64,000 nt of DNA from the NCBI GenBank assembly GCA_037189525.1, contig JBBCJC010000001.1, forward strand, positions 608,001 through 672,000, read 5' to 3'. Both the position numbers and the translations under genes were made by a program. Positions within the stretch are counted from its first letter, which is position 1. Each line of letters opens with the position of its first letter. Source of the stretch: Gemmatimonadales bacterium (GTDB lineage: Bacteria > Gemmatimonadota > Gemmatimonadetes > Gemmatimonadales > GWC2-71-9). The notes beneath the pieces were generated by a model. The model ran no database searches. It saw nothing but the letters and a program-made list of their open reading frames with translations, and was not told where the DNA came from. This document shows, piece after piece, positions 928 through 3,055 of the stretch.

Positions 928-1398
928 TCAAGAATACAGCATCGGCGGCGTCTTGCCTCGCAAGCGCGCGTACACCGCGAGCGACCCACGATGGTGGGCC
1001 GTGTGATCGATGAGCGCGGTCACGACAGCGAGTTTCGGGACACTGCCCATGATGGACGGGTCCGCAATCGGCTCCGCCAGTTCGGCATCGGTCGACCGCT
1101 CCACCACGGCAACGGCCGTCGCAAAGGCACGATCGAGCCACGCGACCGCCTCTGCGAGTGACGTCACAGCGCGCGCTTTCGCAATCGACGCTTCGAAATC
1201 GAGACCCCATCCCTTCCCGAACGCTCCCTCGACAAACCACTCGATCGCATCGGCCGAATGGGCGATATGCCCGGCAACCGTGTATAGCTCCTGGTCCGGG
1301 GCAAAACCCGCGTCGGATTCATCGAAGACCGAGGTCGTGGTCCCGAAAAGCTTGCGGGCATACTTGAGCTGCTCGACGAGCAAACCGGAGGTCGCCAT
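928..1398 (-). CDS. DinB family protein
   Basis: Four-helix pattern with His residues HIAH and HTAHHRGSLAVYARL. Confidence 0.8.
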   Translation of the reverse strand: MATSGLLVEQLKYARKLFGTTTSVFDESDAGFAPDQELYTVAGHIAHSADAIEWFVEGAFGKGWGLDFEASIAKARAVTSLAEAVAWLDRAFATAVAVVERSTDAELAEPIADPSIMGSVPKLAVVTALIDHTAHHRGSLAVYARLRGKTPPMLYS

Positions 1399-1621
1399 AG
1401 GAATCCTTAGCCGTTAAGAGGTTCGGTATTTGTTCGGCATCAAACATGGGGTACCACCCCGGGCCCGTCAAGAAGCCAATCAGCCCATAGCCAATCGGTG
1501 TGGTGGCCCAAAACGACCCGGTCCCCGAGAACGCCCGAGCACTGCCGAGATGACGATTTCCTGGAGCTACGCAGGAAGAAATTATCCGCCGCGCGGCAAG
1601 GTGCTCAAATTCTGAGAGATC

Positions 1622-1649
1622 TTGCGCCGGTCCGACGCCACCGTACCAT
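1622..1649 (+). promoter_or_regulatory. Putative sigma70-like promoter of the ankyrin gene
   Basis: TTGCGC (1622-1627), 16-nt spacer, TACCAT (1644-1649). Confidence 0.4.
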
Positions 1650-1650
1650 T

Positions 1651-1786
1651 GACGAGGGCGTGCGGGGCGCCCCCTCGTCCGCGGGAAGGACCGAGTCCAC
1701 CCGAGTAGCACCCAGGAATGGCCGGTTCATTCGAACCTCCTTCGCCCGACGCAAGCGGACCCCGGGCATCGTCAAGGAGGCTCGTC
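1651..1786 (+). ncRNA. Candidate structured cis-regulatory 5' leader RNA
   Basis: Several hairpins. Anti-SD CCTCCTT (1736-1742) is complementary to SD AAGGAGG (1774-1780); GAAGGA (1685-1690) competes for TCCTTC (1738-1743). Confidence 0.5.
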
Positions 1787-3055
1787 ATGTCCGTCCGCGA
1801 ATTGCCCGTCCGCCCGTCCCTCGACCATCTCAAGCACCAGGCCAAGGATCTGCTCCGCGCACTGCATCGTCATGATGCCGACGCGGTCGCCGATCTGCGA
1901 ACCTACCACCCCGACCCGATTACCCCGTCCGACGTCAAGCTCGGCGATGCCCAGCTGGTACTCGCGCGCAGCTACCAGGCATCGAGCTGGCCCCGACTGG
2001 TACAGGGTGTCAAGCTCGCAAACGCCATCTGGAACAACGATCTGGAGGCGGTGCAAGCTCTCATCAACGGGAACCCGCGGCTCCTCCACGAACCGGTTCT
2101 GATCCGCACCAACAGCAACTGGGGACGGCCGCTGGTCTACGCCGCCAACCTGGGCCGCGATCGGATCATCCGCTACCTGCACAGCATGGGCGCGACCGAT
2201 CTCGAGCACGCCACCGATCGCGCGGCGCTCCAGGGCAAGGTGGAAACCGCCAGGATGCTCTACGACCTCGCCGGTCGGCCGGCCATTCCCGATGACGCCC
2301 TCGGTGGGCCCGCGTACACGCTGAGCGCCGAGGGCACGGCGCTGCTGCTGAGCCTGGGGGTGCGGGTGCGCAGCGACAACGGCGAGCGATTGGCGCCGGT
2401 GGCCGTCGTTCTCGAAACCGACAGCCGGAAGCCGGCCGCCAAGCACGCCATCCTCGCGATGTACGAGCGGCACGGCCTGGAGTTGCCCGACACGCCGACC
2501 ATGGCGCTCCATCGCGGCCGGATCGATTTACTGGAGCGGCACCTCCATCGCGACCCAGGACTCCTGAGCCGCACCTTTTCGCACCGCGAGATCTATCCGG
2601 CGGAGATGGGCTGCAGAGACCCGCTCGACGCCACGGTCGGCACTCCGCTGGGCGGCACCACACTGCTCCACATGTGCGTCGACTATAACGAGTTGGAGAT
2701 CGCGCGCTGGCTCCTGGAACGCGGCATGAGCCCTGACGTTCGCGCGGCGGTGGGCTCCTCGGGGTTCGGCGGCTATACTCCGCTCTTCAACACCGTGGTG
2801 TCGCAACCCAATTTCTGGATGAACTACTGGAAGCTGCCGCCGGCCGCCCCGTTTACCGAGTTGCTATTGGAGTACGGAGCAAGCCCCAATCCTCGGGCCT
2901 CGATTTGGAAGCGGCTGCATCCGGGACATGGCGACCCCGCTCGCCACGACTATCGAGACGTGACGCCCCTCGGCTGGGGCCGCCAGTTTCACGCCCCGAT
3001 CTTCGTCAGCGTTCCGGCAATGGATCTGATCCGGAGTGCCGGCGGGCGCGAGTAG
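1787..3055 (+). CDS. Ankyrin-repeat protein with N-terminal LPVRPSLDHLKHQAKDLL helical domain
   Basis: Ankyrin-like motifs GRPLVYAANLG, GTTLLHMCVDY...WLLERG, GYTPLF...LLEYGASPN; AAGGAGG RBS before ATG 1787. Confidence 0.85.
   Translation: MSVRELPVRPSLDHLKHQAKDLLRALHRHDADAVADLRTYHPDPITPSDVKLGDAQLVLARSYQASSWPRLVQGVKLANAIWNNDLEAVQALINGNPRLLHEPVLIRTNSNWGRPLVYAANLGRDRIIRYLHSMGATDLEHATDRAALQGKVETARMLYDLAGRPAIPDDALGGPAYTLSAEGTALLLSLGVRVRSDNGERLAPVAVVLETDSRKPAAKHAILAMYERHGLELPDTPTMALHRGRIDLLERHLHRDPGLLSRTFSHREIYPAEMGCRDPLDATVGTPLGGTTLLHMCVDYNELEIARWLLERGMSPDVRAAVGSSGFGGYTPLFNTVVSQPNFWMNYWKLPPAAPFTELLLEYGASPNPRASIWKRLHPGHGDPARHDYRDVTPLGWGRQFHAPIFVSVPAMDLIRSAGGRE

Follow-up and report, generated by a model that had tools for sequence, protein, structure and literature searches.

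The 64,000-nucleotide stretch of Gemmatimonadales DNA analysed here (the window) carries one copy of a conserved leader RNA, which is found in several bacterial phyla and is predicted to fold into a double pseudoknot hiding the Shine-Dalgarno (SD) sequence of the gene behind it. Comparison of homologous sequences revealed covarying helices, a predicted SD-hiding stem, a pairing of the RNA with one protein domain, and the joint loss of the RNA and of basic residues in that domain. Judged from these comparisons, the leader RNA tracks a small N-terminal domain, not the ankyrin cargo fused to it. The leader probably serves autogenous translational repression, in which the N-terminal domain would bind the leader and limit the synthesis of its own protein.

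The ankyrin gene, its promoter and its leader

The features of the locus are listed in Table 1. For the 422-aa ankyrin-repeat protein (P0001), no NCBIfam model scored over its cut-off; the Legionella ankyrin effector models were far below it and were set aside, the repeats being generic ankyrin repeats. A longer ORF from ATG 1718 was also rejected, since the starts of the homologues align with position 1787. A consensus promoter scan of the window did not find the plus-strand leader promoter, and the statistics of homologues were used instead. A TAnnnT box lies 5–14 nt ahead of the P1 hairpin in 78 of 85 homologues (shuffled mean 7.8, maximum 17), and a TTG lies 15–19 nt ahead of the -10 box in 34 of 85 (0.6 when shuffled). 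Given the position of the TAnnnT box, the RNA likely starts at P1, and transcription of the ankyrin-gene leader would start near 1655-1657.

Back to back with the leader promoter there is a divergent DinB-family gene (928-1398, minus strand) with a promoter-like site (1581-1608, minus strand). The DinB-family neighbour is not conserved beside the homologues, and the window's own neighbour genes do not recur across 79 homologue loci. The source genome has a second copy of the leader (G000:C1:323439-323571, minus strand, corresponding to L200:2940-3071) before a 495-aa paralogue with the domain and ankyrin repeats.

Table 1. Predicted features of the leader and its gene in the window, with their basis
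Feature	Position	Strand	Basis
-35 box TTGCGC (predicted)	1622..1627	+	sequence; TTG statistics in homologues
-10 box TACCAT (predicted)	1644..1649	+	TAnnnT statistics in homologues
P1 hairpin GGCGU/GCGCC; loop CGGG (1663-1666) is the 5' strand of pseudoknot 1 (PK1)	1657..1671	+	covariation
2-bp CC:GG closure (1673-74/1683-84), presenting GUCCGC (1677-1682), the 5' strand of pseudoknot 2 (PK2)	1673..1684	+	pairing in homologues
Purine-rich GCGGGAAGGA, candidate anti-anti-SD for the ON state	1681..1690	+	duplex energies
P4 hairpin GGAC/GUCC	1688..1698	+	covariation
3' strand of PK1, CCCG	1700..1703	+	covariation, partner permutation
Variable linker, 15-35 nt in homologues	1704..1731	+	alignment
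Anti-SD strand (P5 5')	1732..1742	+	pairing with SD in homologues
P6 hairpin GCCCG/CGGGC; loop GCGGAC (1755-1760) is the 3' strand of PK2	1744..1767	+	covariation
Shine-Dalgarno AAGGAGG with flank (P5 3')	1774..1784	+	sequence, duplex energies
422-aa gene (P0001): N-terminal domain and ankyrin repeats	1787..3055	+	ORF/domain search
N-terminal helical domain, ~70 residues (about residues 1-82); predicted leader-binding domain	1787..2032	+	AlphaFold, HHalign, K/R vs leader

The first-pass annotation of the window had drawn a series of hairpins in this leader. The complementary words were all found where it had placed them: GACGAGGG (1651-58) with CCCTCGTC (1672-79), GGAC (1688-91) with GTCC (1695-98), GAATG (1716-20) with CATTC (1728-32), CCTCCTT (1736-42) with AAGGAGG (1774-80), and GCCCG (1744-48) with CGGGC (1763-67). 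The same annotation had named a folding energy no better than that of shuffled sequences as a sign against its reading. MFE folding, which ignores pseudoknots, gave -62.8 for positions 1640-1800 alone versus -64.0 ± 3.9 for the shuffles (z +0.31), and 127 of 200 shuffles fold as well; the mean z over 85 homologues was -0.64. The Rfam 15 cmscan matched no family, either in the window at the gathering cut-off or in 1380-1900 at E ≤ 10. This agrees with the first-pass annotation, which could place the RNA in no known family, although a distant relative, the COG3860 RNA, is catalogued. Since the single window sequence folds no better than its shuffles and has no match in Rfam, its fold alone proves nothing.

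Is the leader conserved upstream of homologous genes? A protein search gave 79 loci, most of which have a clearly conserved leader. For the alignment A1, 140 leaders were reduced to 94 at <80% similarity, eight with an extra inserted hairpin and one truncated leader were left out, and the resulting 85 were aligned with MAFFT, unfitted to structure. The conservation and covariation that had been called for as a check are present in these 85 leaders, in the form of a double pseudoknot. In A1, 88.9% of 3046 cells pair and 25 of 36 pairs change on both sides, while the slid-partner controls were 35-44% paired. None of 500 shuffles reached any of five measures; related sequences can beat shuffles, and the pair-counting and type-counting measures (both 0/500) are the safer ones.

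The individual helices behave as follows in A1. P1 is 83% paired with three of its five pairs compensatory, and PK1 is 95% paired with three of four compensatory; native PK1 partners form 4.11 bp versus 3.48 ± 0.07 bp after permutation. The CC:GG closure is 99% paired and invariant in A1, and it was seen by eye to be changed on both sides in L291 and L293. PK2 is 99.6% paired (3/6 pairs compensatory), P4 is 99.4% paired with one pair ranging from AU (54) to GC (29), and P6 is 93.6% paired (4/5 compensatory). The retention of G-U pairs in the covarying helices indicates an RNA on the plus strand. Part of A1 was chosen by a pattern fixing TCCGCGG and GRRC, and thus the invariance there is not independent; in the protein-found variants L057, L065, L246, L291, and L293, core helices are changed on both sides. 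The anti-SD and SD strands are 74% paired in A1, in a register that differs between clades. The predicted SD-hiding stem is strong in 83 of the 85 homologues, with a duplex of ≤ -8 kcal in 97.6%. The native anti-SD:SD duplex has -13.6 kcal versus -10.6 ± 0.24 kcal when strands are permuted between homologues, which supports the SD-hiding translational control element that had been put forward.

Among the pairings of the first-pass annotation, GGAC/GTCC, GCCCG/CGGGC, and anti-SD/SD are conserved across the homologues. The GAATG/CATTC hairpin is not; it sits in the 15–35-nt variable linker. Extension of the first hairpin by GACGAG and the alternative GACGAG/CTCGTC pairing reach a duplex of ≤ -4 kcal in only 7 and 5 of the 85, respectively, and with the predicted start at P1 they would fall mostly outside the transcript. 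The suggested alternative between GTCC (1695) and the loop GGAC (1757) did not hold up either, as 29 of 85 homologues have GGGC/GCCC in this hairpin, whereas the A of the loop is retained in 83 of 85. For the anti-anti-SD at 1681-1690, a slight preference was seen (-9.5 native versus -9.0 ± 0.13 permuted and -7.9 shuffled). In short, the leader is real, but its predicted fold differs from the earlier drawing, in which both pseudoknots are missing.

Several variants were noticed. Repeat elements are inserted in the variable linker of the L020 leader. A clade (L112, L117, L123, L127, L130, L134, L148, L164, and L175) has an extra hairpin between P6 and the SD. A short leader variant stands before genes encoding the domain and a VOC glyoxalase (L272:1405-1503, L273:1405-1503, and L068:1930-2010 on the minus strand); its long-range strand pairs beside the start codon, and P5/P6 are absent.

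Linkage and joint loss of the leader and the N-terminal domain

A DNA-pattern scan listed at least 120 loci, and about 2300 such stretches are estimated for the collection. A leader was called when a locus scored ≥25 bits against a profile derived from the protein-search set alone, and 85 of the 120 listed loci were selected in this way. These RNA-selected loci belong to Acidobacteriota (50), Actinomycetota (14), Gemmatimonadota (8), Pseudomonadota (7), Chloroflexota (2), Planctomycetota (1), and Armatimonadota (1), with two unassigned. The N-terminal domain was found within 150 nt of the leader at 81 of the 85 (at a lenient 10-bit cut-off) and at none of the 35 low-scoring pattern loci. Of the four RNA-selected loci without the domain, three are cut off by the edge of the contig or locus, and the fourth seems, by eye, to carry a frameshift. 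The source genome has two leader RNAs and two domain genes, one to one. The RNA occurs in 23 of 61 genomes, with 33 matches in all, of which 30 adjoin a domain match (the coordinates were read by hand, and one match comes from the unpublished G035). Of the remaining three, one has its domain truncated at the end of a contig, one lies at a contig edge, and one is followed by an IS3-like insertion.

Just two loci were seen with a leader ahead of an unrelated intact gene. At L043:1474-3772, the leader is followed by an inserted gene and then by an intact domain-ankyrin gene, and it would control a two-gene operon. At L252 (G024), an IS3-like element is inserted directly after the leader. On viral contigs, 11 pattern matches included one clear leader, and a phage element was rejected. 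The clear one (L341:575-709) is a complete leader with a domain gene.

The cargo behind the domain is diverse: ankyrin, LRR, and Clp_N with a ClpX zinc finger (56 scanned of 150 listed proteins), and VOC glyoxalase. The genes carrying domain and leader share the N-terminal domain only, without a metabolic or transport theme. The first-pass annotation had seen a regulator of an ankyrin gene; the leader does stand before one, but the regulated unit appears to be the N-terminal domain, not the ankyrin cargo. The domain has the signature LPxRPxLxxLKxQAKxLL ... LADAQLVLARxYGFxSW, with K16 and K20 on helix 1. AlphaFold predicts it with a pLDDT of 92 and helices at 12-27, 31-40, 52-62, and 68-82. It matches 10,685 protein clusters (50% identity). 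Foldseek gave no match to it at E ≤ 0.001, the VIA fold search reached a best Z of 4.0, with RNA-polymerase omega-like chains (Z 3.1-3.7) taken as noise, the best hit of a PDB sequence search had E 0.18, and the ESM Atlas gave only unnamed clusters at <0.9.

The basic residues of helix 1 are lost together with the leader. From 204 non-redundant domains, seven internal repeats or frameshift pieces and four broken or false rows were removed, leaving 193. Position 20 is K/R in 173 of 173 domains with a leader versus 1 of 20 without, and position 16 in 167 of 173 versus 1 of 20. The mean charge of residues 12-24 is +1.6 with a leader and -2.3 without, while the hydrophobic core (A19, A60, and W68) is kept in both. 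When the count is limited to protein-selected loci, K/R at 20 is found in 101 of 101 versus 1 of 20. Six leader calls were made by eye, one of them being the short variant of L068, and dropping them gives 95/95 versus 1/20; another of the six, L295, has no CM match, and moving it to the leaderless group gives 2/21. By helical spacing, positions 16, 20, and 24 would share one face of helix 1.

In a tree of the cargo part (43 rows), nine leaderless rows need six changes in 200 of 200 bootstrap trees, while the starred branches force only two. Five of the six inferred leader losses also lost K16 and K20; L027 kept both, and the lysines are also kept without a leader at the Glyoxalase_8 locus L318. 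In a second family (FastTree, 26 rows), a further leaderless acidic clade of eight rows was found. Alternatively, the basic residues could serve a different nucleic-acid function, one that disappears along with the native 5' end.

Where the leader has been lost (L027, L033, L037, L038, and L219), a -10-like box often lies 8-9 nt before the start codon, suggesting that genes without a leader may give leaderless mRNAs. In many proteins the domain is repeated internally, and this second copy has no K/R at 20 (for example, L208, L211, L099, L128, and L132).

The domain has relatives with leaders of their own. HHalign relates it to the N-termini of Glyoxalase_8 proteins (prob 96.2, E 2.4e-9), where the lysine opposite K16 in the alignment is invariant (16 of 16). 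PF20066 (cut-off 23.7 bits) did not match P0001, while 22 of 66 relatives match weakly (best E 3.3e-5). Glyoxalase_8 and PRK05973 proteins have this homologous helical domain, and the leaders of their genes have their elements in the same order as the window leader; in contrast to the Glyoxalase_8 domain, the window-type domain has an extra helix, and the leader model R1 does not detect the Glyoxalase_8/PRK05973 leaders. A type II leader, whose detection required the 6-bp helix, was found at 40 of 42 Glyoxalase_8 loci (upstream regions of L276-L287 and L301-L331), with the same elements but P4 moved. Four of six pairs of its long-range helix are compensatory (39 aligned), and its PK1 has 5.49 bp versus 3.53 ± 0.17 bp when permuted. 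The window's GUCCGC/GCGGAC words recur in the Glyoxalase_8 loci L310, L311, and L321, and by eye in L328. Two Glyoxalase_8 loci lack a leader: L318, mentioned above, and L313, in which helix 1 is shortened. A type III leader, which was predicted beforehand, was found at 8 of 8 PRK05973 loci (L343-L349 and L351), whose genes encode the domain and a RecA/DnaB-like ATPase; it has the same element order and an invariant PK2, in few sequences. Helix sequences differ between the RNA types in step with the domain subfamilies. Rfam had no match on the homologous window-type leaders or on the type II or III leaders (ASdes and SorX were below the cut-off and off the leaders), and no RNA role for Glyoxalase_8 or the PRK05973 N-terminus was found in the literature.

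Proposed repression and alternative explanations

In the proposed mechanism, transcription would start near 1656. Without the protein, the 5' half, with its 2-bp CC:GG closure and 4-bp PK1, would be marginal, and thus GCGGGAAGGA could capture the anti-SD and free the SD (the ON state). The N-terminal domain would bind via K16 and K20 of helix 1 and stabilise the 5' half and the GUCCGC/GCGGAC knot, and the stabilised PK2 would then lock the anti-SD/SD stem (the OFF state). The promoter, the RNA, and the domain would move together as a single cassette, joined to a variety of unrelated cargoes. Against the proposed switch count the slightness of the preference seen for the ON-state pairing and the low cost of opening the SD by force, 4.7 kcal in a non-pseudoknot model.

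The data on co-occurrence and joint loss would also be expected if the domain binds the leader with an outcome other than simple repression. The bound domain might open the SD stem in a positive feedback, or the RNA might hold or modulate the protein with the cargo gating the complex. On its own, the P5+P6 stem is already stable (-19.6 kcal), so that OFF may be the default, and binding modules are frequent among the cargoes (ankyrin, LRR, Clp_N, ClpX zinc finger, and Lon substrate-binding). However, the covarying and most conserved fold is the one in which the SD is hidden, and conserved folds usually correspond to the ligand-bound state. Moreover, the leader is single-copy and includes the SD, unlike the array-type RNA antitoxins. 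I regard binding with an outcome other than simple repression as rather unlikely.

The first-pass annotation had offered a riboswitch, a thermometer, or a protein-binding autoregulatory leader. The last fits best, whereas the other two leave the domain linkage and the joint loss unexplained. A small-molecule riboswitch, with the 5' half as aptamer, P5/P6 as expression platform, and the domain merely marking a gene family, would suit the invariant nucleotides in a multi-helix junction, the two pseudoknots, the SD-hiding stem, and the candidate alternative pairing. It is nevertheless improbable: the cargo domains have no common metabolic theme, the leader precedes an unrelated intact gene only through the operon insertion of L043 and the IS insertion of L252, the loss of K16/K20 is not predicted, and the helix sequences change between RNA types in step with the domain subfamilies. 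The strength of the SD-hiding stem in 83 of 85 homologues would suit a static translation damper, a thermometer, or an operator of a general host factor, in which the N-terminal domain has no role. Such an element would not need the conserved double-knot 5' half, and strict linkage to one domain would be left unexplained along with the joint loss, so that I give this reading little credence. A basic all-helical domain, conserved words directly downstream of a promoter, and a cassette shuffled between genes could also be those of a DNA element, namely an operator or a recombination site that the domain would recognise as a helix-turn-helix protein. Crossing long-range covariation, G-U retention, and SD pairing are an RNA signature, however, which makes a DNA element very improbable. 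The fold searches described above gave no standout helix-turn-helix match (Foldseek none at E ≤ 0.001; VIA best Z 4.0).

Comparison with known systems

No description of the leader was found in the literature. A term search of the main texts of three motif catalogues (PMC8632094, PMC11109978, and PMC5737381) found no ankyrin or glyoxalase motif; their supplements may hold one or comment on the COG3860 RNA. A preprint reports cluster #630,527, a covarying motif without a name that precedes genes for glyoxalase and other enzymes (bioRxiv 10.64898/2026.10.21.760802). In the portion of that preprint available to me, ankyrin is not mentioned, and the motif may or may not overlap with the leader. 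The leader is undescribed as far as I found, yet it is distantly related to the Rfam COG3860 RNA.

The COG3860 RNA (RF02940, Cis-reg, 54 nt; gathering cut-off 42.5 bits) had no match in the window. At three of its loci, it was seen by eye that the GGCAG loop of the first hairpin can pair with CCUGCC after the second hairpin; a GUCGC-type strand with a downstream partner and, in L370, an SD-hiding stem were also seen by eye. The COG3860 proteins have a Glyoxalase_8-related N-terminal domain (HHalign prob 93.7, E 2e-7) followed by DUF2087. P4 of the COG3860 RNA precedes the closing dinucleotide, which it follows in the window leader. Only the 5' half is covered by the Rfam model, with neither pseudoknot drawn, and R1 reaches only E 0.14 at L370. 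The window gene lacks DUF2087 and has ankyrin repeats instead, so it is not a COG3860/DUF2087 gene. A direct profile match between the COG3860 domain and the window-type domain is not significant (prob 5.4), and thus the link runs through Glyoxalase_8. The 54-nt RNA of RF02940 seems to correspond to the first half of a type II-like leader (L368-L370). In the sections available of one earlier study, COG3860 is mentioned only as an uncharacterised domain (PMC1564403).

I propose a superfamily that includes RF02940, defined by the P1-loop pseudoknot, a 6-bp helix into the loop of the SD stem, and a Glyoxalase_8-like domain; these were found in type I (the window type), in types II and III and, by eye, in the COG3860 RNA. 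More tentatively, one might see here an RNA-level one-component system, that is, a portable cassette of promoter, double-pseudoknot leader, and cognate domain, in at least four sequence types, one of them half-catalogued as the COG3860 RNA. It would be fused to thousands of cargoes (ankyrin, LRR, Clp_N, ClpX zinc finger, Lon substrate-binding, VOC, and RecA-like ATPase), the cargo would sense a partner or ligand and release the operator, and the types would be natural orthogonal RNA-protein pairs.

To my knowledge, most autogenous leaders described belong to ribosomal proteins or to other proteins that handle RNA. If autogenous repression is true, the reuse of a detachable cassette of RNA and domain on unrelated proteins across several phyla would amount to a novel way of building feedback control. 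It would also give a function to an unannotated domain with 10,685 cluster matches (50% identity), to the misleadingly named Glyoxalase_8 family, to the N-terminus of PRK05973, and to the orphan COG3860 RNA of Rfam. For synthetic biology, the leaders and domains may be a source of compact RNA-protein pairs that are possibly orthogonal.

Type III toxin-antitoxin RNAs are tandem arrays of pseudoknot repeats upstream of a toxin gene. In contrast, the window-type leader has one copy per gene, and no toxin domain was found. The topologies of HDV-like and pistol ribozymes do not fit the helix order of the leader. Pseudoknot-based autogenous control operates in the rpsO/S15 leader. Other autogenous ribosomal-protein leaders include the S6:S18 motif of rpsF (PMC3895269) and those of a broader survey (PMC3616713). 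The likeness lies in a structured 5' leader beside the SD to which a protein encoded in the same operon is expected to bind. The genes downstream of window-type leaders encode ankyrin, LRR, Clp_N, or VOC fusions and form no ribosomal-protein operon; unlike the ribosomal-protein leaders, the window-type leader involves no ribosomal protein and no evident rRNA mimicry but a separate small domain on unrelated cargoes. As in autogenous translational operators, the conserved structure of the window leader overlaps the SD of its predicted binder's own gene.
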